Below, piece after piece: positions 1 through 64,000 of a stretch of DNA of 64,000 nt. The stretch's first letter is position 1; every line of letters starts with the position of its first letter. The notes under the pieces were generated by a model, which worked only from the letters and a program-made list of their open reading frames with translations, did not search any database and was not told the origin of the DNA. Source of the DNA: Nymphaea colorata (lineage: Eukaryota). The stretch lies in assembly GCF_008831285.2 (NCBI RefSeq), contig NC_045138.2, positions 6,386,001-6,450,000 on the forward strand, given 5' to 3'. Position numbers and translations under genes: made by a program.

Positions 1-1900
1 AATAAGCCTTGATTTCGATATGCTTTCTGAGATGGTTGGTCGTTCAGGAAAATCTACTATTAATTAGAACAAAGTGTTTTGAACTTGGTGTTGACTTTTC
101 TTTTATGGAAATTATTATGATGTCCTATCCCTGGGGATTGGGACTAGAAGGCAGCTAGTTCTATTTGGAACTCATGAGGAACTGATGTACAAGTTGAAGC
201 ACAATAGGGCCTGCAGTAAAATCAGGTCTGGTACCCTGGGTAGATGATGCTTTCAGCTATCTTGTTGGGTGGCAGGATAAAAACCTCCTCCAACTCTTTG
301 AACAAATCACAGTGACATTTTATTATGCCAGAGGCAGTTGCTCTTTTCAGTTTTCTTAAACATATCCTTAATAAGGTGATGCAAACTCCTCTGTTGACCA
401 TCACCGTGCCTTCTTAATTAATAGGTTCACCACTCTGCGTAACATGCAAAACAGAAGGCCTTATGCATAAGACAAATCATGGAGCAAACTTTATGAAAGA
501 AGGCTTCAGGCATCAGCTTCTTGTGCTGTAGAAAGAGAGACAATGATATATAAGTTGAAGCGTAGTGAGACTGTTCGCTAAAATCAGGTCTAGTACCCTA
601 GAAAGATGATGCCTTCAACTATCTTGTTTGGTGGCAGGATAAAATACTCCTCTTACTCATTGAACATATCACTGTGATGTCTTATTATGCCCGAGGCAGT
701 TGCTCTCTTTCCATTGGTTGATCCCATACCATGTGCACCACATCATTTTCAGCTTCCTGAAACACAAACTTAATAAGTGATGCAAACTCCTTTGTTGACC
801 CTCCCCACACCTTCTTAATTAATAGGTTCACCACTCCAAGTAACATGCAAGACAAAAGGCCTTATGTACAAGACAAATCATGGAGCAAACTTTATGAAAG
901 AATGTGTCAGGACTGCAGAACATTCTAAATGGGATGCTGATGACCTTATAGATTTCTTTTATAGTAAAGCATGGTGTAATGTGCATGAATGTTATATGAT
1001 TGGTGCCCCCTCCCAAGGTCAAGGAGGAAAAATGTGTGGAGTGTGGTTAGAGGGAAACCAGTGAAGGCTCAACTACTTTGATAAAATTGGAGAAGTGGAA
1101 AGTGGGGTTTTATGATATATAATATTATATGTTATGTTCCATGGCATAGTATATGTCATATAGTTGAATTATAGATAAATATATGTAATGTGTCTTTCAA
1201 ATAAATTCATGTAAGTGATTCATATAAAATCATGTTGTAAGCATGATATATACTCAGATCTAATAGCATGAAAGTACATAGGCAAAATCGCAAAATATGT
1301 ATGTACATATATATATATATATATCATGCAAAAGGCATGAACCATATGTCAAATAAAATAAAATTATTTAAGAAAACAAGTGCAAAAGTAACTTCATCAT
1401 CTGGCACACATTCACAAGCCTAGGATTCATAGAACTTGAGATCACCCTCAACAAGGTCAGTAGGATACTAGGATTTGTCCTCCAAGAATAGAATTTAAAG
1501 AAAAAAATATCTATATGCAGGAAAGGCATTGAAAATTAACATTTTAGGAAACAATACATGTATAAGTAAGAAAGCTCATGCCTCAACGTTGGGATTAACA
1601 AAGATGGCACTTTTAGATTCTAATCTTATTATTGACATCGGATGTTGCCTAATATTTAGCACAACCAACTGTACATTCCAAAGTTCGATTATTCATATCT
1701 ATATTTTCCAAACTTATGCTTTTGCTTCGTTTGAGAGAATAATGTTGGTGGGAAGACCTCATATCCACCGTTGTTTGAATGCTTGGATGTCATAATCTTA
1801 TAAAATGGAAAATATAGTGATAGTTTTCTGTCTGCATTATTCCAACCTTTCATGCAACAAGAAAGTAAAACCACATTGTTCTAAGGACAACATTGGGAAT
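1..1900. repeat. Array core repeat, copy 1 (two diverged sub-variants in tandem at ~181-503 and ~509-902)
   Basis: The motif gttgcaataagcctt...aatctactattaattagaacaaagtgttttg and its downstream sequence recur at ~15084, 27680, 29515, 34830, 40375, 41915, 50125 and 63838. Confidence 0.9.
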
Positions 1901-2104
1901 TTTTTATTCTTTTACACCAACTCTCCACCGTATATTGTTTCCTCATGAGATCCCAAATGTCCCTACCGTGACCTATTGTACAAGTTTGCCATGATGACGT
2001 AGTTTGTTAGGAGTTCCCCTAATAGTAGGGATAGTTTTCCCTATCCCCTTCAAAAGACTCCAAACTGAGTTTTGGCATATACGGTCAAAATGCAGCATTT
2101 GATT

Positions 2105-4304
2105 AACTGAGAAATGAGAGTTGGAATGAGAAATGCTATATTCTTCAATTAGAGCACAATTTTTAAGGAGACAAGTTAGCCATTTATGATTCCAAAACTT
2201 TGTCGAGCCTTCTTCAATCCTCCTTTTAATGCTATTGGCAATTCCTTTCGAGCTATTGGAGAGACCTTTAAAGAACCAGAGCCAAGAGGAGTTCTTGAAT
2301 ATCTCATGAGGCCAGAAAGTGTCATTTCAGACGTAATTCTTATGAACAAATTTGGCCCGGGCTTAACTTGAAGCAAACCTGCAAAGCAAGAAGAGCAATT
2401 TGACTTTGACCCACTTCACAAACATCATTAATGTCTTCCCTACCTTCCTTAATCAAGTGACTGATCACATTCCAAGAAATGAGATATCTGAATCCAGTCT
2501 GAGAAGAAGAGTCCCAAAGGAAGGAAGCTATGAGAGATTGGATTTCTTTAATGACCCTCACAAGAAGATGGAATACAACTGTCTAATATTGAATAATGTA
2601 AATTATTACATGATTTATAAGGCACAACCTGCCAAAAAACAAGATGAACCTTCACTTCCAACTGGCATGCTGCTTGTTGACTTTGAGAATTATGCACTCT
2701 CCTCTCTCAACCGGTCTTGGAACAGTGTGACTCCAAGGTAACAAATGGAGAAACTCCTGACCAACCAACCAAGCACAGAGCTAATCCAATGGACCATCAA
2801 ATCCTCCACATGAAATGGGATGAAGACATACTTACTGGAGTTAATCCTAAGCCCCACGCAATTGGACAACTTCTCCAACATAGATTCCATCATTTTCAAG
2901 GGATTGACCTTTGCCTGAAAAAATAGCAGTACATCACACATGAAGGAGGGGATCACTGAACACATACCCTCACGGGGGAAGGGTGTGCGAAGAAAACTCT
3001 TATCTCTAGCATATTTATTGACAAGCCTAAAAAAGGCCTCTATGACAATAATAAAAAGACTAAGGGACAGTGGTCACCCTGCCTCATACCCCGTTTAAGG
3101 TTAAAAAAACTTACCTGGGCTACCATTTACCAAAACTGTTGCCGAAGCAATAGAGACATAGCTGAAAACTCTATCGCAACATTCTTAATTAAACTCTACA
3201 TGTAATAAGGTAAATATAAGGAACAACCAATTCACCCTGTCATAAGACTTTGAGAGATCAGGTTTGAGACAAAGTGTTGGTTTCTTATCCCTATTCATGC
3301 TATGAATGAACTTATGTGCAAGGATGATGTTGTCAAGTATGACTTTATTGGCAGCAAAAACTACTTGGTCATCTAATACAATTGTCTTGAGAACATTCTT
3401 CATTTTGTTGACCATAATTTTTATGATCAATTTGTAGATACTGTTAAATAAAGAAATGGGTTGGAACTTTTGAAGAGTTCTTACACCTTCCTTCTTAGGA
3501 ATAAGAGCGATTGGTGTGCGATTGACCTTTTGAACAAGCCTTCTTATGTAAAAGAACAGTTGTACCACTTTACTCACATCCAGGCCTACAATATGCCAAT
3601 TGGCCTAATAAAAAGAGGCAGGAAACCCATCTAGTCTGGGTTGATATCCCAAAAAGATCGAAAGATTGTACTCTTGTGCTCCTCCAATGTGACGAGCTGG
3701 TTCAGCTCCTCATTTTCACTGCAAGAGACACATGGACATCCACTGTTAGAAAGAGCATGTACCCATCACCCTCTTCGATTCGAAGGAGCTGTTGTAAGTA
3801 CCCTCAGTAAGCTGCTAGGATGGCATGTTGATCCCTAGCCATGGAGCCTTCCACCTCCGGCTCAGTGATGGAACTTCTTTTTCTTCTACATCTGTTAATC
3901 GTCTGGAAATTAGTGGTATTACAATCACCTTCCAACATCCATCTCACCCTAGCCACTGTCTCCAACTGCTATTTTCCTCATCGAGGAACTTTCTTATTTA
4001 TCCCTCAGAATCCTCTCTTCATCTGCATCCACCTACCCTCCTAGATCATGAATCATTTGCAACATAATTAATTAGAACTTTATGGTGTTGATCATAAGTT
4101 CAAATGGTTCAAGCTGACCCTTCCTTTAATGAGCTAGAGGTGGAAGGCCAACTGGGTCGGTTTAAGCCTTCCCAAAAACTTGAGCATGGGCCATCCAAAA
4201 ATGTTCACAACCATTCCTGCGTGTTTACAAACTGGCAATCCAGCCTCTGCTGTAAACATCTAAAGTAATGAAATATCTGAGGCCTAAGAATGTCTCTCTT
4301 GTTG
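2105..4304 (-). mobile_element. Degenerate L1-type LINE ORF2 fragment (reverse transcriptase region), copy 1
   Basis: ORF 3185..3577 reads IALIPKK..FQPISLFNSIYKLIIKIM..DNIILAH..KPDLSKSYDRVNW, typical of plant L1 RT. A RQGD-like motif lies near 3075-3090 and a YLG motif near 2735. Many stops and frameshifts. Confidence 0.92.
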
Positions 4305-5318: not shown

Positions 5319-5885
5319 TGAGAACCTAGACCCGAATAGCGATTTCTACGCCCAAGAATAGATCCCAAGTCCAGGATCAACTTGCGGGAGCCTAAAGTCC
5401 AAACTTAAGCAAATTATATTTACAAAGCTTTTCCCGCCGGACAGCAACCGCGGCTTAACAGTACCCTGGGTATAAGATACAAGTATGTTTTCCCTGACCC
5501 AAGTCTTCAATCCTATTACAAAACTGAGGGGACTAAGGCTTGTACAAACACGAGCGATACAGATTTAACTCTCACAACTCACTCATCATTCATTCACAAA
5601 CCATTCATACAATCCCAAAGAATGGCCAAACCATGTCCTTTCCCTTTGGTGGTCTAGCTACTCGCAGTTGTGTCTTTGGCAAGGAGCCTTGGAGGGACTA
5701 CCGACAGTAGCAAATGGCTAGAGCCTGGCTCAGAAAGCAAATGCACCCAATAACCCCGTTCTATAGGATGTTTAGAAGTTACCTAGCCGATGAGAGATCG
5801 ACTTAAACAGCAATAGGATCCGAGAGAAAACCAGTGGCTCAGCCACTCTCGGATATAACAGCAAGGAGGTGGAGTGGAGGCCAAA
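5319..5885. mobile_element. Possible LTR-derived non-coding segment truncating the copia gag
   Basis: Starts TG at an abrupt end of gag homology and abuts gypsy pol. No partner LTR seen. Confidence 0.3.
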
Positions 5886-5889
5886 GCTG

Positions 5890-7235
5890 TTTGTTGTGTT
5901 GGTGTTGAAACTCGTTGTTTGAGCATGTATTTAAGGCTGTTCTGATCTGTCTTCACGATGAATCTTCAGCCTATGAGGTAAGGCCTCCATTTCTCAACTG
6001 ACAACACTATGGCAAGAAGTTCTTCCTCATATGTCGATAACGGTTTGGCTCGATTGGTGAGAGCCTTTGACATATATGCTATAAGGTGATTTTCTTGGCT
6101 GAGGACAACTCCTATGCCAATGTCACAAGCATCTGTTTCAATAGTGAAAGGCTTGCTAAAATCGGGCAAGGTGAGAACAGGTGCTGTCATGAGTGCTGAT
6201 TTCAATTTCTCAAATGCTTCTCTTGCTTTGTCTGACCAAGCGAATGATCCTTTCTTAGTCATTTGGGTTAATGGGGCAGCTATGAGCCCCATTAACCCAA
6301 ATGACTAATGGAGCCTTTGTTGTGTTGGTGTTGAAACTCGTTGTTTGAGCATGTATTTAAGGCTGTTCTGATCTGTCTTCATGATGAATCTTCAGCCTAT
6401 GAGGTAAGGCCTCCATTTCTCAACTGACAACACTATGGCAAGAAGTTCTTTCTCATATGTCGATAACGGTTTGGCTCAATTGGTGAGAGACTTTGACATA
6501 TAGGGTGATTTTCTTGGTTGAGGACAACTCCTATGCCAATGTCACAAGCATCTGTTTCAATAGTGAAAGGCTTGCTAAAATCTGGCAAGGTGAGAACAGG
6601 TGCTGTCATGAGTGCCGATTTCAATTTTTCAAATGCTTCTCTTGCTTTGTCTGACCAAGCGAATGCTTATTTCTTAGTCATTCGGGTTAGTGGGGCAGCT
6701 ATGAGCCCGTAGCCTTCAATGAATCTTCTATAATAGCCGGTTAACCCAAGAAATCCACGGAGGCTTTTCAAGTCTTTAGGCAAAGGCCAGTTGTTCATTG
6801 CCTCTAATTTTTCAGGGTCTGCTTTTACCCCTTCTTTGGATACTATGTGCCCAAGATATCCGATTGAGGGTTGGCCAAAGCTGCATTTTGACCCCTTAGC
6901 ATAAAGACGATGTTCCCTCAAAATTTGTAAGGCCATGGTCAAGTGGGCAGCATGTTGCTCTACTGACTGGCTATATACGAGAATGCGATCAAAGAATACC
7001 AAGATGAAGTTTCTAAGATACCTCCTAAACACATCATTCATGCACCTCTGGAATGTGGCGGGTGCATTGGTTAAGCCAAAATGCATCACCAAGAACTCAT
7101 AGTGTCCATCATGAGTTCTAAAAGTTGTTTTTGGAATGTCTTCATCGTGCATTCTAATCTGGTGGTAGAGGAACCGGTTAACACATCTAGAAGTTCGTCG
7201 ATTACCGGTATTGGATGCCGGTCCTTCACGGTTGC
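5890..7235 (-). pseudogene. Ty3/gypsy pol fragment: RT plus tandemly duplicated RNase H region
   Basis: TVKDRHPIPVIDELLD, KTTFRTHDGHYEFLVMHFGLTNAPATFQ, VFFDRILVYS (catalytic DD changed to DR), LRGFLGLTGYYRRF and ETDACDIGIG. RNase H units at ~5890-6289 and ~6316-6708. Confidence 0.95.
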
Positions 7236-8651
7236 CCCATCTGGTGTTACACCAAGAGAAGAAGCCAAGGGCTATGCGATTTGCATTGGGAGGTTGTGAA
7301 CGTATGGCTTAGGTAATGATGGAGTAGGGAGGTATTAAAATGGTCTAATGATGAAGGGGAGAGGTGGCAAGCTTGGAGTTAATCTCTTGAGCTCATGGGT
7401 TGGCTTTAGGGACGGTTACAAGAAGAAAGGGAGGCCAACGGGTAGAGGAGGTGAAGGATGCGAGTGAAGGGGGTGAACCATTGTGGCTGGAGTGTAATGA
7501 TGAGGAGGACACCTGGCTAGGGATGAAATTAACTTACCTTTATGCGTGGCCAAGTGTGGAGCTCTTTAAAATGAGAAGCGTTATATAACGCTTGAACTAA
7601 TGAAGGGAAGCCGAAGGGAAAGAAGAGGAGTGAGCGCCCACAGGTTTGGACTCTTTAACGCTATTCCCTTGAGTTTACCAAACTGCCCTTTTCAAATAAG
7701 CCAGTAATCAATTAGTCAATTAATGACCATGGGCAAACTTGGAATTGGCGGAAAAGATTGGACGCCGATTGGGTTTCGCCGGAGTTAGTGCAGCGTTGAG
7801 TATTTTCGGTGGCAGAAAAGTACGATGCAGGATTGATTGCTGCTGTCGTGGACGAGTTTTCAAGGGGATTAACCAGTCAATTTCGCTGAAATCCTATTGG
7901 TCGTCTACCAATGGAATTCCGACGAGCTCTCTCGGTTTCTCACCTTGAAAATCAGTCCTCTAAGAGCTAGCGTCGATCATCCTTTCCGGCGCTCTTTGTC
8001 TCTGTTTTTAGCAGAGATCAAGGGGCCCACTAGGGACGATTTCAACTAGTCCTCTGCTCCGCTCAAGTAGGGAAGGAGCCGGGAGATTAACGACACCTAC
8101 CTCTTCTCTTGCAGCCGGAGTCTTGTGCTTGGGTACTAGGCGACTAGAGCCACGAGTCGCTCTCCTCCAAGCCTTCCCGATTATCTTCTCCAGCCTCTAA
8201 CTCCTTTCGGGAATGAAGAAGTTGCACAGCGAGAAGATGGCGATTCAGTTGGGGAATTTGTGCGTAGGAAGAAGGTGCTCCAAGAGGATTTCCGATGGCC
8301 TCAAGGAACGTCCTCAAACCTGTTTTACTTCAACCAGAGCCATGGGTTGGAGCCTTTGGATTCCAATCACCGGCGGTAAGACGATGAAGGAAAGAGAGAG
8401 GCGAGAGCCAATGCACACGAAAAAACTCAACTTCTAATTCTTAATTGCATAATGAAAAAAGACTTACAAAAGAGTTTAAGTACTTGAAATAAAACTGGTT
8501 CTTAACATGTGAACCGAGACACTTGCTGAAATGAAATGACTCAACTATAAAGCAAAAGCATAAAAGGAGACCGAGACGAGACGTCTCCAATGTTTAGTGA
8601 GTTTGGCCTCTCCCTCACGGGTTCAGCCATATAACTTGCCTAAGTTCGGCC

Positions 8652-10882
<2,231 letters not shown>

Positions 10883-12729
10883 AAAGTTGAGAGATAGAGA
10901 TGAATAAGGAATAATAAAAGAAATAGAAAAGGTGGCCAATAAAGAGAGAAAAGATCTTAGGGTCGTCATTTGCACCATGCATAACATGAGTCTCTTTGAA
11001 ACCATTGCTCATTGTCTCCTTAAGCAAGGTTTGAGAAGAGCGAGAAGGTGAGAAAGGTAAAAATGAAATATGAAGGAAAAAGAACAAGAAAAATATATAT
11101 GAAAAAGAAAAATGGAGGAAAGAAAACAGAAAGTAGAGGACGTTCCGTTCTCTCTCAACTGTGGCAAGCAAAGGGTGTTCTTATCACAAATGCACATCAA
11201 AAGAAACAAAACTACAAAATTATTCAATATGACATCCAAGCTTTCAAAGAACGGTGGATATGGTTATAGCTTGCCCACTACATGATAAATTATTAGAATA
11301 GATTATCAAAATGCTTTTTGTAGTCCAACGTTAATTATTGATATAATTTTCGGAGTGATTTGAGTTTAGATGCATTTTTCTTTATCAATCAATGCAATGA
11401 GGTGAGGCGAATCATTAAGCCTGTCATGAGGTGAGCGTAAGCATCTAGGAATTGAAGCATAAACATCAGGATCGACATGTTAAAATATATAATATGCACA
11501 AAATTAATGAAAAAATTGAAAGAGAAAAACTAAAATAACAAATATATAAGTAAAAAACTATAAAAAAAACGAATTTGAATCGTGTTAATCATCTTTCATG
11601 CATGCTCACGTAACAATTCTTGTAAAATCCATCTGTCTTAACAATATCTTCCATGTGGAAATTAAAAAATCTCATCTTAACATAATTCACTTGCGTAATA
11701 AAAATAAAATAAACAAAATCGATCCTTAAACTTGAAAAATTAACTGCACATGTATTTCGGTAATAATCAAGAAAACATCATTTCACAACTCAAATATAAT
11801 AGTCACATTGACACATTGATGACAAACCAAAAACAAGGAACTAATATGAGATGCGAAGCGTGAGAACATGCATGTTTCTTTTAGAGAAAATATAATTTAA
11901 CAATTTTAATTAGTATTACATGATTATTTCTGTAAAGAATCTAAGCCATTTGACTCATTCAAAAAATAAGCCCACCCTTACAACATCATTACAGTAGAAA
12001 CTCAAAAGTAAATTTTTATGGAAACAACAATAAAATCACCGACCAATTAATCAGTTCCATTTTAGTGGACAGGTTTTGAAACAAACATAATTAAGCCTAG
12101 AGTCGCACTTGAAACAGACACTTACTATGGCGTCAGAATGTGACCCATATGATTTGTTTGACTATGCTACTTATAATGGTATTCACAAATTCACATAATT
12201 CTACTGGATAATTTGAAGATTCTAAAATCTGAGTCTATTTTTGTAATATAGGAAAAATAACTAAAGTTACAGAAATTTTATGAAGAAGTACATGTTTTAA
12301 AGGGTCGACTCCAAGTGGACTCAATGACCTTTAACACCAGCCATCTCTCTTTCTCTCTCTCTCTCTCTTTGCCACCATCGACAGATCTACTGAGGGCACC
12401 AAAAGGATGGTGCCGTCAGCTGACTAAAGGCATCACCTCTCCACAAAGGGTGGCTGGGAGAAGACATAACCTACCTTCTCAGTGGAGAGTGAGCTGCGTG
12501 CACCACCTTGTGCAAGCAGCAAATGTGCACCCAAAGGTGGATTAAAGTAGTTTGGTAATTTTTAAAAAACCATAATTTTTTCTCCTTTCTACCGACCAAG
12601 ACATTTTGGTCATTATGCACGCTGGTGCACAAGGGTATATATGACCACTTTTGTTTCCAAGACGTAGAATGTTGAATATTCCAAACGCCACCTAAATTAA
12701 AACAAATAGGCTGTGCTTCAATACTTAAC

Positions 12730-12801
<72 letters not shown>

Positions 12802-12867
12802 ACTAGTGAGGCATAAAAAAGACATAGTACCAAAAAGGGCAAAGCTGATTGCAAACGCAAACCTCTG

Positions 12868-12990
12868 CATTGTGCATAGGACCATGTGCATGACATGTAC
12901 CCTCAATAGTGGGCCAAGGAACATTGTGCATAGGACTATGTGCATGACACGTACCCTCAAGAGTGGTCCAGAAAGACACATGTCATGCAC
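12868..12990. repeat. 54-bp tandem repeat, about 2.3 copies
   Basis: cattgtgcataggac(c/t)atgtgcatgaca(t/c)gtaccctcaa(t/g)agtgg repeated head to tail. Also present at ~61620-61742. Confidence 0.85.
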
Positions 12991-13396
12991 CGTATAATCA
13001 CCTCTCCACAAAGGGTGGATGGGAGAAGATGTAACCTACCATCCTATGGGAGAAGATGCACCGTATAATCCTGTTAAATGTCATTTTAGGGGAGAGATGG
13101 TGACAAACACATTAGTATTAGATTAAAATTGAGGTTCTCATGTTGAAGTGGTTGTTAATTATTAAATGAGAATGGATTTCATAGAATTCATTTTTGAGGT
13201 GGAGATTCTTAAAGAATGCAATGCAAGGTGATAAATTGCTCTTTCCTATGTTGTGATTTAGAACAATTGTTATTCTCATGACAAGTTTAAGTGGACCTAT
13301 CAAATCATGCTAGTATATTTATTAATGGTTACTAGTTGGAGTTGGGCCTATGGTTTAAGAAATGGGCATAGTTTTGTTTTTGTTTCATGCATACTT

Positions 13397-13789
13397 GTTC
13401 CACCCTGCCGATTGTATAATTCTTTATGTTTTGATTCTTCAACTTTCATAGAACTGTGATCAAGCTCAGGACTCTTTTCTCAAAGGTAAATTATTCAAGT
13501 TGGTCACGCTTCCATCTAGATCTCCAGTAGGAAACTGTCGCACTTGAGGAGATGTGTCGATTTTGTTATTGCCAAATCTTGCAGTCTCCGTTTCCTCATT
13601 TAGTGGCAATAAGAAAATCGACACATCTCCTCAAGTGCAATGGTTTTCTACTGGAGATCTAGATGAAAGCGTGACCAACTTGAATAATTTACCTTTGAGA
13701 AAGAGTCCTGAGCTTGATCACAGTTCTATGAAAGTTAAGAATCAAAACATAAAGAATCACCATTCCAGATACAATTGGCAGGGTGGAAC
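13397..13789. repeat. Long inverted repeat (arms ~180 bp, 29-nt loop)
   Basis: 13397-13574 is the near-perfect reverse complement of 13604-13789. Confidence 0.97.
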
Positions 13790-15005
13790 TTTATGACAGG
13801 AATGCAACAGGTCGAGAGGAGATGTACACTAAGATCGTGCATACTAATGAATGTGAAACAGGTCAAGACTCACATGGTAGCAACAGCAACAGGCACTTCC
13901 AATCCATTGTTGGCAGAAATATACCACCAACAGCAACTGATGATGAGAATTTGCTCTACTTTTCCGTAATTTTCTTCCAAAATTTGACCGCACTCAGGCT
14001 GTTAATCAAATTGGATCAAGTCTAGAGTGTGCTGCTCCAGCAGATGAGTTTGTGAACAGATAAAAAAAGCTGTTTTGAGCAATGATCATTCTCAGAACTT
14101 TTGTGCATGGCAGAATCATCAATGTTCAAAGGTCTATATGCAAACATGAGTCACTGTGGGTCACATGGAGAGCACGTTCGAAACGCTTCTGACCAGTTGC
14201 TGCATGAAAAGCGAAAAACAAACTTGGATAAGGTAAAAGTTAATAACCTATTTTTTATTGCAATATCAAGCAGTCATGGTATTATGTGAACTGGAAGTCT
14301 TCATACAAATTTGTCGATCTGCTCTTAGAACCTCTGAATAACTAATTCCATAGAATGACAATGAAATATTTCAAAAGCTATAGTGCCCTTCAAAAAGAAA
14401 AAAATTATTCAAAACAATGGGAGAATGTTTTGCAGACAGAAAAGAGATAATTGATTTGGCAATTATGAAAACGCAGCTGCGAATATGCAACAACTTTTAA
14501 CAATTTTCTGATTTTAAAAACTCATATTCACTTGTTGGATTTTATGGTCACTTTCTTTACACGCACCTAAAGGTCCTCTTTCCTGCTTCCATTTACATTA
14601 ATACCTTTAGATTCCTCGCTCATCACACTCAGCAGCCTTTATATTTTTTCCTTCAGTCTAGCTGCCACTAATTCCTACTAGTGCAAGATAATCTCTGAAA
14701 AGTGATTAGAATAAAGCATAGGGTGCCACCATCCTGCCTCATGTGTCGGAGAAGAAATACGAACACTAACAGATGAACAACTGAAATCCTTGCAAGTTTT
14801 AGGAGCAGGGCCTTCACTTGAAATAGACAATTTCCCTAAGGTAAATGGTGAGAGCAAGACTTCATCAGTGGAAGACACATCCTCCATCATAATCTTTGCA
14901 CAGGAGGCAGATAGAATCAGTTCTGTAAACAAAGCAACAGACCCAGATGGGCTTCTTGGCAAGTTTGGGGACTGCAAGCAATGTCATCTCTTCTCTTTCC
15001 TGTAG
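13604..15005 (+). pseudogene. Unidentified two-exon protein-coding gene fragment (disrupted)
   Basis: Consecutive protein-like ORF pieces end at AAG|GTAAAA (14232/14233). An AT-rich intron ends TTTTTTCCTTCAG (14656), followed by coding-like sequence (..EEIRTLTDEQLKSLQVLGAGPSLEIDNFPKVNGE..) to TAG at 15005. No family recognised. Confidence 0.5.
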
Positions 15006-15083
15006 AACTTTGTGGCATGAAACCATGGTTCACTTGGGAAGTTTCATTCAGAGAACACGTATTTTTTTCTTCGATGAAGTTGC

Positions 15084-19144: not shown

Positions 19145-22100
19145 TTTGTAAAAAGAAGGTGTTAACTCAAAGAGAGAGACATATAGATTCTAGAAAGAGA
19201 AAGTGGGATACACACACAGACATATATATATGATCTATAAAAGAATATGTTAAATCAAAGAGAGAGAAAAGAGAAAGAGAGATATTTATGTACATGTATA
19301 TATATATATAACATGTATATACACATATACACAAATGAAAACTAAAATTAAGAAATATCTTGGAGTATTTTCGACTTCGATTTTTCTATTTTCGCGGAGA
19401 GGAACTTGAGCACATGTAAGAGTTTAGGCTAACTCTCCAAAACCTCATTAAAGAGCGTTCTTATTTTGAATTTCATTTAAAAACATGATTCCAAATATTT
19501 TCATATAAGCATAAAACAATAATCATTTCATCTACTAAAAGAAAATTTATTTCTCCCACCATTAGGTATGGAAGAAAATCAAGCACACACGAAATGAAAA
19601 GTTAATAACATAAGAAAACACTCATTGGGGTCCCTAATCGGGTGATTAAAAGAAATGCTAAACGTAAGGATGCCATGAAGACACATTTGTAAGGGGTTTT
19701 TTGGATTGGACAAATTCCAATATAAAAAATCAACATAATAACAAAGAAATCTCAATCCAAGCACTCATTGTTATCATTCGTTCGCATATTAATTAAGGAA
19801 TCAATAAACTTTGTATGAACCTTTAAAAGCAAAGTATACATTTAAGAGAAGAGAGAAGCATATTTCAATCCTAGATGAAATTTCGTTTCACCTTGCTCAT
19901 GTTTTCGGTTCACTCAAGAATAGCTCTTGACTCTAGAGAGGAGATTTGAGAGTTATCTAACATGGCCATGGGAAGATGAAAAAGGAAAAAAAAAAAAAAA
20001 AGGAAAAGGATTGGGATATTGACTACAGCTAATGAGAATGATTTTAGAAAATTAGTCTCTTTATCCGGATAATCCTAAAGCTTCCTCGAATGAAGCTGCA
20101 AGGTGTTGAAAATGTCTCTCCGAGAGGCCTCCTCATGCTTCCTTGTAGAGTGGAAGTTGGTGAAGCTTTCTCCCAAAGTTGGAGAAGAAGAAGATAAAAG
20201 GAGAGAAATAGAGAGAGAGTTAGGGGAAAGACTCTAAGTCTTCAAATGAGAAAGTATTATAGGTTTTCCAAGAGTTAGCTCACGCATAAGAGAGAAGATT
20301 TTGAAGACATTGATAGAGAGTTTTGGAGTCAAAACTCAAAATTTGAATTTAACAATATTTTCATGCGAATTTCAAGTATTTTTGAATTTATTTTAAATTT
20401 TATTTTTAATAGGTTTTGACCAAATGAGATTGGCTCTCAGACCTGCAAACACCCCTTTGGGAGTGTGGGCAGGGCTAGTGCTCACTTAGCAGACCAAAAC
20501 AGCCCTCAAGGGGTGTTTTTTAGCCAAAAAAGGGCCTGCGTGGTCGTAATTAGGTGCACGTGTGCCGTGGCCAGCAACTGCATCTGGCGTGACAGTGCCA
20601 GGTCGCTGTCGCGGTCGCATTACTCGTGGCAGTGCGTGGCGCGGCTGTGCGCCTTGGTCAGAGCGTATGGCCTAGCCATGTCGGCCAGGACGTTTGGAGT
20701 GTGCAGCCCACTTATTGGTTTGCTTTGGACCAATAAGGGGTGGCTTTTGCCCCAGGCTTCCAAGGTGGTCCCACACATAAAACAACATAAAAATGATTTT
20801 TAAAACACACATTTTAAAGGGAAAAGTGATCTTTTGTTACAGACAGCACCAACTACATTTTGTGTGGTTTCGAGCTCATTTTTAGATCTAGATCGGGTTC
20901 GCTTGGTCGCCAATGTGTTCTAGTTGATGCACGAGGATTCGACCAAGGTTTAGGCTCAAAACATATTTTTAAAGTTTTTTTTTTTGGCACGAGATTGAGA
21001 CGCAAAACGAAAGCATGGTATGTGCATGCGCACATGTCGCTCAGTAGTATCAAAATTTGTTATTTTGGCCTCGACTTTGGATTTTGAGTTGGAATTCTTG
21101 ATTTGAATCCAAACTTCGGTTTTGGATCTAATTTGGATATAAGAGCGGCTTTATGAGTCCGTTTTCCTAGTTTAGACTTAAGTCATTTGTTGGCTCAATT
21201 ACAGACTTTGGCTTCGTATTTCGTATCAAGGTATGTATTTTAGATCTAGGACTTGGATTTGGATCCAAATATTCATCTAAAGTTGAATTTTGGAATTAAA
21301 TCTTACATTTGGATTCAAATATGGGTCTAGAGATTTGGATCGAGTATCGAGAATTGGACTTGGATATGGCTATAGAAGTTTGTCTTGGATCTAGGATCGA
21401 AATTTGAACTTGGATACAAATTTAGAAGTCTGTTTTGGGTTGAGCTTGGACTCAGGGTCCAAAATTAAACCCAAATCACTGTAAAGATGGTTGAAATAAC
21501 CGAGAATCTTGTTTGAATGAAATACAGTCTTCTGAAAAAAATTTGGGGTGATAATAGATGTAGTACTAAAACAGCTGTAATTAAATAAACTTTGGGATCT
21601 CCAGGTATAGATAAAAGAAAAAAACATATCTTGATGTATTCTGGAACGTGGATGTCACTTTTTAGTGTTATTATTGACATTGTATGTTGCTTAACATTTA
21701 GTACTACCAATTGTACATTCAAGAGTTCAGAGTCTTTGGATCTAACTTTCCTACCTATGCTTGTACTTTATTTGAGACAATAAAGTAGGAAAAAAGACCT
21801 CTCATATGCATCATTGTTCAAAAGCTTTCATGCTGTAGATGCATATATAAAATGGGAGATATAGTGCCAACACTAGGGCAACAAATGATTTAAATTTGAG
21901 AGTTATAGTTGAAAAAGCTCATGTGTCAATGCATTCAATAACAAGGACAAGAATTTTATGTTTTAATATTGCAATCATTGAATCCCACCTAAATGTAGCA
22001 TTAACAATTGTATTTTCCAAAGTCATGAGATCCTTTATATTCAAGTTTTTTCCTAATTTAAACTTGTTATTTACTTGAGAGAGTATAGTTGGTGGAAAGA

Positions 22101-22773
22101 CACCTCATATCCACAATTGTCTAAAACTTACATATAAAGTAGGAGATATGGTGCAAAAGCTACTCACAATTGATTCAAATTTACGAGTCATATGTACAAG
22201 TAAAAATGCTCGTCTCCTAATGTATTCAATAACAAGGATGGGAATTTTAGATTTAATGTTAATGTTGTCACTGGATGCTGCCTAAATTTAATGCTAGCAT
22301 TTATACTTTTGAATGTGTGAGTCTCAGTATTTAAATTTCTAATTTAAGCTTATGTGTTATTTGGGAGAGTATAGTTGATGGAATTAAAGACCCCTCATGG
22401 CTTCAAGGCCTCATCGGCTTTGCCTTGCATGCCTTCATGGCTTCACAGCATGGTCAGGTCTTTGTATTTCAAAACAAGGCAGGATTGAAATCTAGGCAGA
22501 ACATAAGAGATGACAAGAGCCACAAGTTGGCTTTCCGAGAGCAAGCAGTTATATGTGGTGGGCTTCATTGTAACAAAATTCTGAAAGCTTGTCTGAGCTG
22601 GCACAAAGGACAGCAATGCTAAGCTAATTTCCTACTTTGTTTCCCTGCTCATCACCTTCTTGGTTTACCTTGCTTATGTCTATGCTTGTTTCCCTTTCTA
22701 GTTCATCAGTCTCCCTGACACACTCGTACGAACTTGACTTGCTGCTTGTACCAATACAACTCTTCTTTACAAT

Positions 22774-23080
22774 TAGGGTTGTACATGAACTGAGTCAAGC
22801 TCGAGCTTGGTCAGCTCGACACTAGTCAGCACATACTTAATTTGCTTGCCTGGACCTTGAGCAGTGAGTCAAGTTGTATAAGGTCAGGTGGAGCTGGACT
22901 TGATAGAGTGGGTCCCAGCTAGAGCTGGGCTTGTTTAAGCTCGTTTACCAACTGACAACTGTCATTTGACTTGATCTGTTTCCTTTGTTTTACGAGTTTA
23001 TGTAGTTTGAATTTGACTCATTTAGAAGCTGAGTTTACTGAGTGAGTTCAAGTCAAGCTCGAGTTGGCTCGACTCATTAT
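22774..23080. mobile_element. Probable non-autonomous hAT-like element remnant
   Basis: Starts TAGGGTTGTAC and is rich in GCTCG/CGAGC-type subterminal motifs. Related starts at 37233 and ~55357. No second terminus or TSD found. Confidence 0.45.
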
Positions 23081-24633
23081 ATATCACGACTCAATGCCAA
23101 TGATACGTGTGGGAACATGGTGAAATCAACCGAATATCTGAATGATATTCAGCTCCTCGACAATGGAAACAGAGTTTCTCTGGTTGAGAATGTCTACTGG
23201 AGAATGTCACCCATCAATTCAGTTAGGAGATTTCTTTACAAGCTAGAAGGTAGTTCCTATTCCAATTCATTATAAAACATAGAGAAAAATACTCATTTTC
23301 CTTAATTTACATAACCTTACTTCCATTGAGTATTGTTTCAAGACATGGAACCAATGCCCTTTACAAAAACTATTTATCCTCGTTGGCACAAAGGCAGTAA
23401 CAAAAGAAAGCCTAAATTTTAGGGCGCTGATTATGTAACAAATTAATTTATGTGGGGGAACCACTATGCAAATAAAATAAATTGTGTGGTTCTAGATGGG
23501 CACACCACACCCAGCTCTACCATTAAGCTAACTGATAATAAGTTGGTGCACATCATAATATATTACACTTAACTTATGGATTTATAGAAGAACGTAAGAC
23601 TTAGTTGTTAAAGTATATATACTCAACAGGAAGGTTATTCGGATTATCTCACATTTTCTTCAGTAGCCAAATTAATTAAATATTGGGAAATATTTTCTCT
23701 CTATTGAAGGAACTAAGAGTTGGTGACTTCAAATGGATATTCACAATGTCTTTCTTCATAACGTATCTTCAGTGAGGTAGAGATTGATATGCAAATTGAA
23801 TATACTGTTGTACGGACTTAAATAATGTCCTTGGAATTGTTGGGTGAGCAACAAGAATATAATATCATACAGCGGCAAACAAGAGAAACGAAACCCCCAC
23901 CCTTCACCCATCCCCCAGGTACCAGGTCTGCTTGAGTGCTTTCGGTGGTGAATTAATACACAATTTAGTGATGCTTAGAAGGTAATATTAAGAACAGTAT
24001 GATTACCTAGTTAAGAAGTGTTCACCTCAAGTATTTATTCAACAACATAAGAGTGACCCTTATTAATATTTCCCTTCTTAAGTTATAAACAAAAAGTAAC
24101 CCCAGAAAAACAGAAAATTTGTTCTAATGATTTTCATATATAATTAAAGTAATAGCCATATTTATTCAAATATGTGTGGTATAGATTCTCTGTCACTAAA
24201 TAAGAAAGAGAGTTGATCATGATATAGATTCTCTTATCCAAATCCGATTCGATAGCATTTATGTTCTACAGCACCTCATGAATTTGAAAATCTCATATTC
24301 TCGAGTTGTTCCAGTCCAACTTGGTTATAAATATGTAATTCATATTGTTAATTCGATGAGAATCAATCTACAAATTCTGAAATATGAGATCTATATAAAG
24401 CTAAAAAATATTAAATAAGACGTTTTCTCAATGCAAAAAGGAAAATTAAGTATTTCAAGTGTAGATTTTAAATCGAATCTAAAATAGATTCTTTCAAGAA
24501 CTATGGATTTTACCGGGATCTTTTGCTATAGCCTATTGTTTACTTGGCGAGGCTAGTTTTATGCCTTGAACAACTTTTGTAGGGCAGTAGATCATACCAT
24601 AAAAAGCGGGCAGGTAAATAGGAAAATGAATAC

Positions 24634-43439: not shown

Positions 43440-46300
43440 CCCAAATACTGATGGCCCCACCTTTTGTTTTGCAAAACTAGCTATACAGCAGACGCAGTCA
43501 CTCATACTTTACATGAAGATGGTTAAACATAGCTACAATATCAAAAGAGGTGTCACTCTCTATGCCATGTGGAGGTTCCAAAGCCTCCAGCAAACCCCTC
43601 TCTTCAGAAGCGCTATCCACTTTGTCATCCCCTTGCTCCTCGAAAATAAATCTCACCCCAATTAGCTCATGCTTCAAATTAAGCTCCACTTTCTTTGGAT
43701 CGATCACTTTCACCATTCCCCCACGCAGACCTTCAATTGATAATTCTCCCTTTAGTTTCTTCAAGTCTTTTAGTTCATTAATATTGCAACCTCTTGTCTT
43801 CCCTTTGTCATCGCATACCATAAACCTATGCAAGGTCCGTAAATTAGTAAGCTTCCCCAGACCTTCAGCTACGAATTTCAATTCCTTTGTATCTTTCAGC
43901 CCAAGATACCTCAAGTTGCACAGTTCGCCCATTTCCTTGGGCAACTCTTGAATGGCACCATGACTTAAATCCAATGTTTGCAAGTTACAGAGTCTGCCGA
44001 TTGAACTGGGCAACCGTCTCACTTTAGACTTGCTTAGATCAAGATATTTTACAAGTGCAAGGCATTGAATGCAATTTGGCAACTCATCCATTTCACATCC
44101 CCTCAATAACATAGTGCAAGGCATGGAGCATAACAAACATGTGACTCAACCTATTAAGCGAGAAATGAGAGTTGGAACACGAAATGCTATATCCTTCAAT
44201 TAGAATACAATTGCTAAGGACACAAGTTAGCCATTTATGATTCCAAAACTTTATCAAGCCTTCTTTAATCCTCCATTTAATGCTATTGGCAATTCCTTTC
44301 CAGCTATTGGAGAGGCCTTTAAAGAACCATAACCAAGAGGAGTTCTTGAATATCTCATGAGACCAGAAAGTGTCATTTCAGAGGTAATTCTTACGAACAA
44401 ATTTGGCCTGGGCTTAACTTGAAGCAAACCTGCAGAGCAAGAAGAGCAATTTGACTTTGACTAATTTCACAAACATCATTAATGTCTACCTACCTTCCTT
44501 AATCAAATGACTGATCACATTCCAAGAAATGAGATGTCTGAATCCAGTCTGAGAAGAGGAGTCCCAAAGGAAGGAAGATATGGGAGATTAGATTTCTTTA
44601 ATGACCCTCACAAGAAGATGGAATACTACTGGCCAATATTGAATAATGTAAATTATTACATGATTTATAAGGCACAACCTGCCAAAAAACAAGATGAGCC
44701 TTCACTTCCAACTGGCATGCTGCTTGTTAACTTTGAGAATTATGCACTCACACCATTTCTCTCTCAACCGGTCATGGAACAGTGAGACTCGAAGGTAACA
44801 AATGGAAAAACTCCTGACCAACCAATCTTGCACAGAGCTAATCCAAAGGACCATCAAATCCTCTACATGAAATGGACATACTGATTGGAGTTAATCCTAA
44901 GCCCCACGCAATTGGACAACTTCTCCAACATAGATTCCACCATTTTCAAGGGATTGACCTTTCCCCAAAAAAGTAGCAGCACATCACACATGAAAGAGAC
45001 TATCACTGAACACTTACCCTCACGGGCGAAGGATGGTGTGAAGAAAACTCTTATCTCTAGCATATTTATAGACAACCCTAAAGAAGGGCCTCTATGACAA
45101 TAATAAAAAGATAAGGGGAAAACGGTCACCCAGCCTCATACCTCGTTTAAGGTTAAAAAACTTACCTGGGATACCATTCACCAAAACTGCTGCCAAAGCA
45201 ATAGAGATATAGGTGAAAACTCTATTTCAACATTCTTAATTAAACTCTACATGTAATAGGGTAGATATAAGGAACAACCAATTCACCCTGTCATAAGACT
45301 TTGAGAGATCAAATTTGAGATAAACCATTGGTTTCTTATCCTTCTTCATGCTATGAATGATCTCATGTGCAAGGAAGATGTCGTCATGTATGACTTTATT
45401 GGTGGAAAAAACTGCTTGGTCATCTAATACAATCCTTTTGAGAACATTCTTCATTTTGTTGACCATAATTTTTATGATCAATTTATACATACTGTTAAAT
45501 AAAGGAATGGGTTGGAACTTTTGAAGAGTTGTTACACCTTCCGTCTTAGGAATAAGGGTGATTTGTGTGCGATTGACCTTTTGAACAAGCCTTCTTATTA
45601 AAAGAACAACTGTACCATTTTACTCCCATCTGCACCTACAATATGCCATTTGGCCTACAGTATCCCAAAAGGATCGAAAGACTATACACTTGTGCTCCTC
45701 CAATGTGATGAGCTGGTTCCGCTCCTCACTTTCACTGCAAGAGACACATGGACATCCACTGAGCATGTTCCCTTCACCTTTTTCGATTCCAAGGAGCTGT
45801 TGGAAGCAACCATAGTAAGCTGCTAGGATGGCATGTGGATCCCTAATCATGGAGCCTTCCACCTCCAGCTCAGTGATGGAACTTATTCTTCTCCTACTTC
45901 TGGTAATAGTCTGGAAATAAGTGGAATTACGATCACCTTCCAACATCCATCTCACCCTAGCCGGTGTCTCCAACTGCTCTGTTCCTCATCAAGGCACTTC
46001 CTTATTGATCCCTCAGAATCCTCTCTTCATCTGCATCCACCTACCCTCTAGATCATGGATCATTTGACATATTTAATTAGAACTTTATGGCTTTGATCAT
46101 AAGTTCAACTGGTTCAAGCTGACCCTTCCTTCAACGAGCTAGAGGCATGTGGGTTGCTTTAAGCTTTCCCAAAAACTTGAGCATGGGGTATCCAAAAATG
46201 TTCACCCCCATTCCTGAGCGATCACAAGCTGGCATTCCTTCCTCCGCTGCAAACATCTAAAGTAATGAAATATTTGAGGCCTAAGAATGTCGCTTTTGTT
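43440..46300 (-). mobile_element. Degenerate L1-type LINE, copy 3, interrupted by an NLR fragment
   Basis: ORF 45620..45973 ARVRWMLEGDRNSTYFQ and ORF 45236..45490 KFDLSKSYDRVNW. Colinear with copy 1. Confidence 0.92.
43556..44122 (-). pseudogene. LRR-region fragment of an RGA2/RGA3-like CC-NLR disease-resistance gene
   Basis: ELPNCIQCLALVKYLDLS, LPSSIGRLCNLQTLDLS, ELPKEMGELCNLRYL, GLGKLTNLRTL, INELKDLKKLKGELSIEGL and LLEALEPPHGIE. Stop-free over 567 bp. Confidence 0.93.
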
Positions 46301-48300: not shown

Positions 48301-49084
48301 GGTGGTTCTCTTTGTTGGTCACAGAACTATTTCAACATAAGGGTTTTGAAGCTCTATTAATGGTGAAGGTGTGCTTTAGGCCCTTTTCCTCCTCGTTTTC
48401 TTGTTTAGGATATGATATTCATCAAGGAAAATTCCTTTATTCTTATATGCTAAAAGTTCTTCCTCATCCTCATCACCATCGTCAGTTGCTGTGTTCAGGT
48501 AAACCCTAATTTTTCTATTTTGTGCTTGCACTCTGTGCAGCTGGGTCTTTTATGATTGCCTTCATTCTCTCGCACTGCCTTTCTCTTTCTTGGATCAAAC
48601 AGTTCCAGATTTTCCATCTCGATCTGAGTATTGTCGGGAGGGATTCTAGCCGTTGGTTGGTTGGATCGTACCTAGCTCATTCCCCTTTTCCCATATGTAC
48701 TGAGTAGAGGCAAAAAATGGAGAAATTAAGGTTTACTTGATTACAAAAACTGACGATGGTGACGATGATGAGGGAAAACTTGTAGTAGAGAAGGACATTT
48801 TATTTTGAGGCTCGTGTTCCAGGGGTTGGGGCATTTCCCGGATGGATGACTTTTTGTTCTTCTTGGACAGAATGATGCTTTGTCGTCATTTGTCTTCTAG
48901 CCAGACATGTTTAACTGTTAAAGATGTGAAAGTAATTTCCATCAGAAAATGAAAAAAGAGTAATTGCCTCAGACATTCTAATTGTTAAAGATGTGAAAGT
49001 AATTTCCATCAAAAAATGCAAAACCAAATTAAAAACCGCTCTGTTCTGATTAGCAGAAGACATTCAGGTGTGTGTGTGTGAGAG

Positions 49085-50047
49085 AGAGAGAGAGACAGAG
49101 AAATGAGGTGGAGGTGGCCACCGCGAGAGAACGAGCATCAGATCATCAATGGCCATGGTGGGGAGACAGATTGACTTCTTGTCATTTTCAGTGTTATCTC
49201 CTTCGTTATTCAAACTCTCCTCCTCTTTTTGTGTGCATGTGATTGTCTATTTGATAAGAGCGGCCCCTGCCAACAACATTTGGGAGAGAAAAGGACATGT
49301 CTTCTGCTTTCTGTTTTCATTCTTATTTCTTCATATATATATTTTTCCATTCTGTTTCCTTCGTACTTTTTCTCTTATTCCTTTCTCCCTCCCTCTCTCT
49401 TGCTTCTTGTTGTTCAAGGGGATAATAAGCAATGGCATCATAGGAAACACCTTATATTAAACATGGTGTTGAGCCCCTCCTAAAATCTTTTTTTTTCCCT
49501 TTTTCAGCTCCCCTTTTTCTCTAATTCTTTTTTGCTATTTCATTATTCCTTCTCTCTCTAACGCACATGATATATATACATAGTGAGAGAGAAATAGGTA
49601 TAAGGAATACAAAAAGAAATAGAAAAGGTGGCTCAAAAAGATAGAAAAGTTCATAAGGTGGTCACCGCAGCATGCATAACATGAGGTCCCTATGAGACCA
49701 TTGCTCATTATCTCCTTAAGCAAAGAGAGAGAAGAGAGAGAGGGTGAGAAAGGAATTAGAGAAAAAATACGAAGGAAAGAGAACACAAAAAAATATGAAG
49801 ACAGAAAAGCAGAAGAATGAGAACAAAAAGAAGAGGTCGTGACCTTCTCTCTCAACTGCTTTCAACAAGTGGCACTCTTCTCACACAAACGCACATAAAC
49901 AGAAACAGGAGGAGGGCCAAAGTAATGGGGGAGAGAATAGTGCAAATGCTGAGGAATCATCCTCTTTCCCTGTTGTGGCTGTTGATGATCTGGCAATCCT
50001 TCTCTCTAGGTACCCACTTCCACCTCCTCATGTCTTTCTCTCACTCT
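49085..50047. mobile_element. Microsatellite-centred foldback element (imperfect palindrome, ~480-bp arms); most complete copy
   Basis: The CT-rich left half is the degenerate reverse complement of the GA-rich right half about a centre near 49570. Partial copies at ~10742-11200, 26757-27600, 33890-34750, 41270-41835 and 59290-59970. Confidence 0.75.
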
Positions 50048-50753
50048 ATGTCACTATCATTAAGGAAAAAATGGGGTTATTTGGGAGTTTTATTCAAAGA
50101 ACTCCTATTGTTTTCCTTCGACAAAGTTGCAATAAGCCTTGTTTTCGACCCATTTTCGAGTTGTTTGATCCTTCAATGTTTTTTAAAATCTGTTAGTAAT
50201 TAGAGTAGAGTATTTTTAATTTGGTTTTGAGTTTTCCTCTACAGAAATTGTTGTGACATTGTATCCCTAAGGGAGTTGGCACAATAGAAGGGGTAGATGT
50301 TGGTAGATTACTCCATTGGTTATTCATGGGGCATCAACTTTTTGTGTTGCAAAAAGTGGATACTGATATCCAAGTTGAAGCATAACATACGTGTATGTGC
50401 ATCAAAAGTAGGTCTGGTACCTGGGGAAGATGGTGGCTTGTCTCTCTTGTTAAGCGGCATGATAAACTACTCCTCCTACTACTCAACAAATTACTGTGAA
50501 GTTTTACTCTGCCCAAGGCAGTTGCTCTCTTTCCATTCATTGAACCCATACCACGTGCACCACATCATTTTCAGCTCATTTGAACATAACCTTAATAAGT
50601 GATGCAAACTCCTATGTTGACCATCTCCGTGCCTTCTTAATTAAAATGTTCACCACTACATTCTATCATGCAAGACTGAAGGCCTTATGCATATGACAAA
50701 TCATGGAGCAAGCTTTATGAAAGAAGGTGCCAGGATTGCAGAAAATTTTAAAT

Positions 50754-51094
50754 AAGAAAAGACGATGTCCTCACTACTGGACGAAAGGGACCACAAACCC
50801 ATTCTTCATATAATAAACCTCCTCTCCAAGAATAGAAGCCAGTGGTACGTTTTTGTTTCTATACGCAACATGTTGGTGATTTCTGATGGGAATGAAGCGG
50901 GTCGTCCCCCCGGGTTCCCCCACCAAACAACTGAGAAGCGGGTCGTCCCCTTCCCTTCCTCTGATCATCAAGCCCCCTGATCTCTTTATTTTTCTTTCAT
51001 CTTTCCATCCAATTCTTTCTAATTCAACAAAAAAAAGAGGCTCGGGATGTTTGTTTGAAGTGGCGAAGGCAGAGAAAGTACGAAAAAAGTAAGT
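50754..51094 (-). other. Probable nuclear insertion of mitochondrial DNA (NUMT) within a core-repeat copy
   Basis: Absent from all other core copies, GC-richer than its flanks, and contains the 5' half of a mitochondrial-type trnE. Confidence 0.7.
50756..50791 (-). pseudogene. trnE: 5' half of a plant-mitochondrial-type tRNA-Glu(UUC), truncated at the anticodon
   Basis: Minus strand GTCCCTTTCGTCCAGTAGTGAGGACATCGTCTTTTC matches the plant mitochondrial trnE 5' half as I recall it (GTCCCTTTCGTCCAGTGGTTAGGACATCGTCTTTTC) with two differences. Confidence 0.8.
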
Positions 51095-62148: not shown

Positions 62149-62541
62149 GTTCCACCCTGCCGATTGTATAATTCTTTATGTTTTGATTCTTCAACTTTCA
62201 TAGAACTGTGATCAAGCTCAGGACTCTTTTCTCAAAGGTAAATTATTCAAGTTGGTCACGCTTTCATCTAGATCTCCAGTAGGAAACTGTCGCACTTGAG
62301 GAGATGTGTCGATTTTGTTATTGCCAAATCTTGCAGTCTCCGTTTCCTCATTTAGTGGCAGTAAGAAAATCGACACATCTCCTCAAGTGCAACGCTTTTC
62401 TACTGGAGATCTAGATGAAAGCGTGACCAACTTGAATAATTTACCTTTGAGAAAGAGTTCTGAGCTTGATCACAGTTCTATGAAAGTTGAAGAATCAAAA
62501 CATAAAGAATCACCTTTCCAGATACAATTGGCAGGGTGGAA
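62149..62541. repeat. Second copy of the ~180-bp-arm hairpin
   Basis: Homologous to 13397-13789 at offset 48752. Confidence 0.97.
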
Positions 62542-64000
62542 TTTTATGACAGGAATGCAACAGGTCGAGAGGTGATGTACACTAAGATCGTGCATACTAA
62601 TGAATGTGAAACAGGTCAAGACTCACATGGTAGCAACAGCAACAAGCACTTCCAATCCATTGTTGGCAGCAATATACCACCAACAGCAACTGATGATGAG
62701 AATTTGCTTTACTTTTCCGTAATTTTCTTCCAAAATTTTACCGCACTCAGGCTGTTAATCAAATTGGATCAAGTCCAGAGTGTGCTGCTCCAGCAGATGA
62801 GTTTGTGAACAGATAAAAAAAAAGCTGTTATGAGCAACGATCATTCTCAGAGCTTTTGTGCATGGCAGAATCATCAATGTTCAAAGGTCTATATGCAAAC
62901 ATTAGTCACTGTGGGTCACATGGAGAGCAAGTGCGAAACGCTTCTGACCAGTTGCTGCATGAAAAGCGAAAAACAAACTTGGATAAGGTAAAAGTTAATA
63001 ACCTATTTTTTATTGCAATATCAGGCAGTCATGGTATTCTGTGAACTGGAAATCTTCATACAAATTTGTCGATCTGCTCTTAGAACCTCTGAATAACTAA
63101 TTCCATAAAAAGACAATGAAATATTTCAAAAGCTATAGTGCCCTTCAAAAAGAAAAAAATTATTCAAAACAATGGGAAAATGTTTTGCAGACAGAAAAGA
63201 GATAATTGATTTGGCAATTATGAAAACGCAGCTGCGAATATGCAACAACTTTTAACAATTTTCTGATTTTAAAAACTCATATTCACTTGTTGGATTTTAT
63301 GGTCACTTTCTTTACACGCACCTAAAGGTCCTCTTTCCTGCTTCCATTTACATTAATACCTTTAGATTCCTCGCTCATCATACTCAGTAGCCTTTATATT
63401 TTTTCCTTCAGTCTAGCTGCCACTAATTCCTACTTGTGCAAGATAATCTCTGAAAAGTGAATTAGAATAAAGCATAGGGTGGCACCATCCTGCCTCATGT
63501 GTCGGAGAAGAAATACGAACACTAACAGATGAACAACTGAAATCCTCGCAAGTTTTAGGAGCAGGGCCTTCACTTGAAATAGACACTTGCCCTAAGGTAA
63601 ATGGTGAGAGCAAGCCTTCATCAGCGGAAGACACATCCTCGGTCATAATATTTGCACAGGAGGCAGATAGAATCAGTTCTGTAAACAAAGCAACCAATAC
63701 AGATGGACTTCTTGGCAAGTTTGGGGACCGCAGGCAATGTCATATTCTCTTTCCTGTAGAACTTTGTGGCATGAAACCGTGGTTTACTTGGGAAGTTTCA
63801 TTGAGAGAACTCATATTTTTTTCTTCGATGAAGTTGCAATAAGCCTTGATTTCGATATGCTTTCTGAGATGGTTGGTCGTTCAGGAAAATCTACTATTAA
63901 TTAGAACAAAGTGTTTTGAACTTGGTGTTGACTTTTCTTTTATGGAAATTATTATGATGTCCTATCCCTGGGGATTGGGACTAGAAGGCAGCTAGTTCTA

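Follow-up and report, generated by a model that had tools for sequence, protein, structure and literature searches.

How does one stretch of repetitive DNA come to hold pieces of unrelated genes, and of an organelle genome, that its own sister copies lack? We examined this question in a 64-kb window of the water lily Nymphaea colorata (contig NC_045138.2, 6,386,001 to 6,450,000, forward strand; the window is the whole stretch analysed, and positions below are counted within it). Among named proteins, the best matches are from Nymphaea. The window is a same-strand tandem array, and copies within it carry fragments of an RNL gene, a CNL gene, a ROS1/DEMETER demethylase gene, a beta-galactosidase gene and mitochondrial DNA. 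The RNL, CNL and mitochondrial pieces are gains from genomic or organellar templates. We consider it probable, at about 60%, that the array copies carry ectopic pieces left by break repair or template switching, and that local duplication then multiplied them.

Repeats of several ages in one array

Self-comparison found a match elsewhere in the window for 78.6% of its bases, leaving 22 stretches of at least 40 bp without any self-match. The core repeat starts nine times in the window, always on the plus strand, and most of these starts lie behind a truncated copy of a degenerate palindrome, module F. In the module map, the core repeats are separated by blocks B, C and D, by long interspersed nuclear element (LINE) copies and by pieces of long terminal repeat (LTR) retrotransposons.

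49078..50054, no strand: module F, ~1 kb degenerate palindrome (69%); truncated copies ahead of most core repeats
29440..31152, plus strand: core repeat, reference copy; its tail is 66-72% like block B
21500..26640, plus strand: blocks B and C; sister copies at 54236-59347 and 32593-33953
1825..4304, minus strand: LINE fragment (reverse transcriptase, RT); more copies at 16888, 31417 and 44153
5781..10747, minus strand: rearranged Ty3/Gypsy-type pol fragment, labelled Gypsy from its open reading frames rather than by a family scan

Collinear copies differ by 0.6% (15/2325), 2.0% (85/4298), 4.9%, 8.2%, 8.9% and 19.5%, indicating that duplication has been ongoing over a long time. The original prediction of a few modules repeated at several ages therefore describes the window well. 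The points at which copies start and end vary from copy to copy. Summed contig depth over blocks B and C, about 60-560 in DNA run X2 among the matches listed, hints at further copies outside the window, a depth figure not being a copy number.

Captured pieces beside their empty sites

Three inserts had been named in the original prediction, and all three lie where it placed them, each single-copy in the window and each absent from the sister copies. A fourth piece, of a different gene and putatively a gain, has no sister copy.

24586..25051, minus strand: exon of an RNL (RPW8-NB) gene at 24634-25037, with its two splice sites and flanked by short stubs of intron; ~26 bp of host sequence replaced
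43556..44122, minus strand: LRR-coding piece of a CNL gene, with homology over 43556-44111, in place of 2 bp of a LINE copy
50754..51094, minus strand: nuclear insertion of mitochondrial DNA (NUMT), the 5' half of tRNA-Glu(TTC) (50756-50791) with ~300 bp of upstream sequence, in place of ~58 bp of core repeat
37520..38230, plus strand: degenerate beta-galactosidase (GH35) fragment, four exons with introns

The junction panels of the three named inserts show neither a target-site duplication (TSD) nor poly(A), as had been claimed. Replacement of host sequence had been claimed for two of them; it is real, but all three show it.

The RNL exon is 404 bp long, keeps its AG and GT splice sites, and encodes 134 amino acids (aa) of which all 134 are identical to P0001, a protein of 451 aa with RPW8 and NB-ARC domains. 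P0001 is itself truncated, with RPW8 and NB and no LRR; P0003 is its full-length paralogue. The other exons of P0001 are absent from the window by tblastn, and the idea that the core repeat encodes RPW8 or further RNL exons was ruled out, tblastn of P0001-P0004 returning the one exon only. The two other block-C copies differ by 4.7% and 7.7% from the RNL-bearing copy and by 7.8% from each other, and both, sister and outgroup, retain the bases that the insert replaced. Among the matches listed, X1 and X2 contigs contain a further empty-site form of the locus, and two spans, 24590-24829 and 24816-25056, are matched with 0 differences by X2 contigs that end at the insert edges. A lone copy should extend ~30 bases into the host, and we therefore infer a second identical copy with other flanks. 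The insert appears to be a very recent capture from genomic DNA; as read from the contig ends only, its edges would comprise a 5-nt microhomology on one side and a ~4-nt filler on the other. RNA runs X20 and X21 gave 0 reads on 21500-26400, which is no test of transcription. Ectopic RNL duplication has been reported for a related water lily, for which the array offers a possible route (PMC9140740).

These data bear on the suggestion that the picture is partly an artefact, either of mis-assembled repeats or because the RNL exon is a working exon within very long introns, lost from the sister copies. Two copies identical over 474 bp, the 100% match of P0001 to the exon and the lack of long reads are compatible with it. 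However, most copies are 2-20% apart, empty-site forms occur as contig joints in two runs, the introns of P0001 would have to exceed 24 kb and 39 kb, and the contig ends at both edges of the RNL insert imply a second context. We regard an artefact as very improbable.

The LRR piece has its best protein matches among CNLs (70-80%), and 28 of the 43 NLR queries end at 43555-43558. Donor-family contigs depart from the window sequence exactly at 43556 (4 from X2, 8 from X1 and 2 from X19) and also at 44111, among the matches listed. At the right junction we found a 12-nt templated filler (44113-44124) copied from 44054-44065 (expected 1.7e-5). Both DNA runs, X1 and X2, have the empty site, AT, as a contig joint, and a third LINE copy matches across this site at 13 of 15 bases (4/5000 shuffles). 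That the flanks are NLR sequence and the piece was lost from the sister is ruled out by the loose contig ends at 43556 and 44111 together with the third LINE copy. Two runs guessed to be RNA contain LRR pieces that are nearly identical (2 differences in 139 bases and 1 in 119, among the matches listed). CNL LRR DNA is extremely abundant in this genome: among the matches listed, contig depth reaches 12,899 in a single bin from one run, and a donor of this class is therefore expected by chance. The earlier emphasis on immune receptors is correspondingly weak, and neither NLR piece forms a hairpin.

Searched with a gapped motif from the left end of the mitochondrial insert, the genome collection gave 2 loci, each of them a tRNA-Glu(TTC). 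Bases 3-341 of its 341 align to the contig of one of these loci at 71% (E 3.4e-50). Over the 20 kb of that contig that were read, it holds tRNA-Glu, cox1, 6 group II introns over the cut-off and a piece of plastid ycf3 intron, at a GC content of 43-47%. The contig, G001:C140 (L002, L004, L006), is 127 kb long and sits in an assembly labelled Frankia; it is likely to be host-plant mitochondrial DNA contaminating a bacterial assembly. Given that identity, mitochondrial homology spans the whole insert. In the Nymphaea mitogenome, trnE(TTC) is next to nad7 (PMC6092842). The 55-bp host stretch replaced by the NUMT is whole in five other core copies. X2 contigs over the insert are divergent and at depth 312-400, among the matches listed. 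Metagenome pattern scans with the insert gave 0 matches in one case and, in the other, a single 21-mer (L001) dismissed as chance; an Rfam search with its half tRNA gave 0 matches, and phage blastn gave short chance matches only.

The GH35 fragment was the only assignment from Pfam on 347 short frames, which gave 2 further matches below the cut-off. Atlas searches gave no usable match, and a match to P0127 was set aside as chance.

The captured pieces lie in both orientations. Retroposed copies made by a LINE do not account for them, as the RNL intron stubs and the ROS1 and GH35 introns are kept and neither poly(A) nor TSD is seen; the intron stubs of the RNL exon and the half tRNA of the NUMT indicate copying from DNA. 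Host bases were lost without TSD, as in break-repair insertion, and templated fillers occupy junctions. Two of these are inverted: 25 nt at 17402-17426, with its source at 17835 or 18254 on the minus strand, which joins a partial copy of the Gypsy-type pol fragment (17423-18756), and 26 nt at 6290-6315. The inverted fillers had been claimed and stand; for the claimed microhomologies, inspection by eye without a null model gave about 5 of 22 junctions, with 1-7 nt each. Likewise, the preference for polymerase theta or synthesis-dependent strand annealing (SDSA) over retroposition and cut-and-paste transposition holds as far as end-joining or template-switch scars go, but polymerase theta, SDSA and microhomology-mediated break-induced replication (MMBIR) are inseparable by sequence alone.

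We propose that ectopic DNA is copied into the array while DNA breaks or stalled forks are being repaired, perhaps by theta-mediated end joining (TMEJ), SDSA or microhomology-mediated template switching. Local duplication, presumably by unequal exchange or re-replication and not by transposition, would then multiply whatever a unit carries. No dedicated collecting machine is needed: captures stand out here through the empty sites that sister copies provide. The mechanisms invoked are already known ones; it is the concentration of captures that is unusual. Natural loci that preserve several ectopic captures next to their unfilled counterparts are rare, and this array is one. Its captures range from apparently very recent (RNL, 0 differences) to older, and break-repair capture can therefore be dated and counted here without a transposon vehicle.

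At least five foreign pieces in 64 kb, and many deletion-insertion junctions with templated fillers, could also reflect a true fragile hotspot, in which AT-centred palindromes extrude or stall forks, break often and capture DNA well above background. Nineteen hand-picked junctions are somewhat nearer to palindromes than random points are (median 745 versus 1751 bp; the selection is not unbiased). However, the five capture sites themselves are no nearer to palindromes or (AT)n tracts than random points: 29-57% of random points are as close or closer to palindromes, and 16-70% to (AT)n. Moreover, the capture rate has no genome-wide baseline, and sister copies make inserts easier to see here. We consider a hotspot of this kind improbable, and the earlier proposal that palindromes make the locus break-prone gains nothing from the capture positions.

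The ROS1/DEMETER cassette and its hairpin

The original prediction had the array capture fragments and then amplify them. This fails for the three named inserts, which are single-copy, but holds for a cassette that it had missed and that is the sole case in which capture followed by amplification is shown. The ROS1 cassette, ~3.8 kb with its companion U1, lies between the tail of palindrome F and the core repeat.

11200..13396, no strand: U1, travels with the ROS1 cassette; nothing of note in Pfam
13397..13789, no strand: fold-back hairpin of ROS1/DEMETER coding sequence; inverted arm aa ~827-893 on the minus strand, forward arm from aa 838
13605..14948, plus strand: ROS1/DEMETER gene fragment, aa 838-1096, with intron (GT at ~14233), frameshifts and stops
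14944..15033, minus strand: another inverted piece of ROS1 (aa 555-584), which meets the core repeat through the shared letters TTGGGAAGTT
62149..63787, plus strand: second copy of the ROS1 cassette and hairpin, with 50 differences in 1679 aligned bases (3%); U1 copy at 59973-62148

Within 13397-15033, tblastn recovered aa 838-1046, then an intron, then aa ~1047-1096. Three ROS1 pieces in alternating orientation would fit chained template switching. Of 255 aligned ROS1 residues, 31 are unique to the window, versus 7 and 3 unique to the proteins of two species, suggesting a decaying copy taken around or before the split of the two species, or from another paralogue.

The hairpin is a 393-bp palindrome with 176 bp paired in helices of up to 37-59 bp and a predicted minimum free energy of -289 kcal/mol, a stability equalled by 0 of 100 shuffles. 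Its loop is unduplicated ROS1 sequence, as expected from a fold-back. As at hairpin-RNA and young MIRNA loci, we thus found a long fold-back derived from what would be its target gene. Rfam returned no family at gathering score (25 weak matches), and so no known MIRNA family. If transcribed, the hairpin could yield small RNAs against its own gene. Amplification of the captured, folded unit might even form a self-silencing circuit, in which repeat copy number tunes small RNAs against the demethylase. We hold this to be distinctly improbable; if true, it would concern demethylase control in a lineage used for studying the origin of endosperm imprinting. The amplified hairpin offers a cheap, direct test of whether repeats can acquire small-RNA control of the demethylation machinery. 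In Salvia, the lineage-specific miRNA Smi-miR7972 targets a DEMETER-like gene (PMC5940787).

Transposon ends, other elements and known systems

A repeat that contains pieces of several genes, introns included, is what Pack-type Mutator-like elements (Pack-MULEs) and Helitrons classically look like (PMC13317346). The repeat unit might thus be the inside of a large non-autonomous Helitron, a MULE without terminal inverted repeats (TIRs) or a Pack-type element, or a tandem train of these, with ends that are decayed or outside the window. The multiple copies of the blocks in short-read contigs and the long inverted repeat of module F agree with this. We found nothing in the window that does so among the ends and domains of such elements, however, and the absence of convincing giant-Helitron or Pack-type termini in the original prediction was borne out by searches for CACTA, MULE and Helitron ends. 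Within the window, 83 x 87 CACTA/CACTG sites yielded 0 terminal pairs with TIR and 3-bp TSD. All 36 matches with TIR and 8-10 bp TSD are microsatellite, Gypsy-internal or hairpin-internal; no long-TIR pair accompanies a TSD of 8-10 bp and palindrome F does not bracket cargo, non-TIR MULEs being outside this test. A Helitron has a GC-rich hairpin at its 3' end and CTRR before a T, and autonomous copies encode RepHel. The window search found 3 Helitron-like 3' ends, all inside the Gypsy piece (0-3 in 10 shuffles) and none in the repeat modules; ends that are decayed or lie outside the window could have escaped it. None of 368 frames scanned contains a transposase or RepHel domain, and the start and end points of copies differ. 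A transposon vehicle therefore seems to us rather unlikely.

Several observations weigh against break-repair capture followed by local duplication. Donors are not seen as DNA, and among the matches listed no contig bridges a filled junction between host and insert. Among core copies, divergence is highest (18-19%) in the one that bears the NUMT, so that polarity rests on the organellar source and not on the tree, and run X1 gives almost no cover over most of the NUMT (depth 3.4, among the matches listed). Seven of the 43 NLR queries align weakly beyond the left LRR junction, to 43438-43486. A third ROS1 copy, upstream of base 1, is inferred only, from a matching core type. The outer ends of the array are beyond the window, so transposable element termini could lie outside it, and the blocks' genome-wide multiplicity, at the X2 summed depth given above, would also fit a dispersed element.

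The window holds further elements. An LTR-like block (18777-21500) has a second copy (52452-54134) that lacks 1141 bp (20063-21203). A 146-bp stretch, 22512-22657, is not in the sister copy yet reaches depth 343 in X2; the sister has probably lost it, or it is an insert that was amplified. A fold-back element at 38535-39801 has arms of 370 bp (85%) around a piece at 38958-39433 that resembles a miniature inverted-repeat transposable element, with a 47-bp TIR, a 116-bp inner palindrome and no clear TSD visible. Block D, at 28054-28990 and 35765-36950, is duplicated at 96.5%. The broken, A-rich reading frame at its end resembles, by eye, a piece of an endogenous pararetrovirus; Pfam, Atlas and viral contigs gave no support, and a viral-contig search with 28698-28988 gave no match. 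Single-copy Copia-type fragments (gag; RT and SH3) are nested beside LINE copies at 4305-5780 and 46302-47502. Finally, 48235-48860, which resembles a 5' untranslated exon with a terminal GT and includes a 77% inverted copy (48442-48545 / 48690-48793), is possibly another captured gene piece with a fold-back; contigs of X14 and X19, both guessed to be RNA runs, follow it over 48244-48321 before diverging (depth 125-159, among the matches listed).

A full-text literature search, with most subscription journals outside its coverage, found no paper on siRNAs from an inverted-duplication hairpin of a ROS1 gene fragment, and a search listing showed nothing close to a comparable array. The nearest likeness is to filler DNA and templated insertion at plant double-strand breaks by TMEJ, SDSA, or fork stalling and template switching (FoSTeS)/MMBIR, with host deletion, no TSD, microhomology or fillers, and donors from other molecules. 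The same signatures are found at CRISPR breaks in Arabidopsis (PMC10923293), in rice organelle inserts (PMC12129026) and in gene-fragment movement in wheat, where gene-fragment filler made by SDSA resembles the captures in the window (PMC3445842). The array differs in combining five or more natural events, with inserts of 0.3-3.8 kb, one of them later amplified. As a short (<500 bp), simple insert with host loss, the NUMT matches those of Oryza (PMC12129026); it is an ordinary member of its class, with no mechanistic difference, cut in the anticodon loop of trnE. With capture by Pack-MULEs, Pack-CACTAs and Helitrons the array shares intron-bearing pieces of several genes in a repeat that may send small interfering RNAs at donors, as gene fragments captured by transposable elements do in maize (10.1101/777037; PMC13317346). 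Unlike them, it consists of tandem copies with variable ends, and the window shows neither TIRs with TSDs nor a Helitron end or a transposase. Inverted duplication is an accepted source of hairpin loci, and the long, near-perfect fold-back from a coding gene fragment is like that of hairpin RNAs and young MIRNA loci (PMC3237417). The hairpin in the window differs from those loci in lying within an amplifying repeat and in deriving from ROS1 itself.

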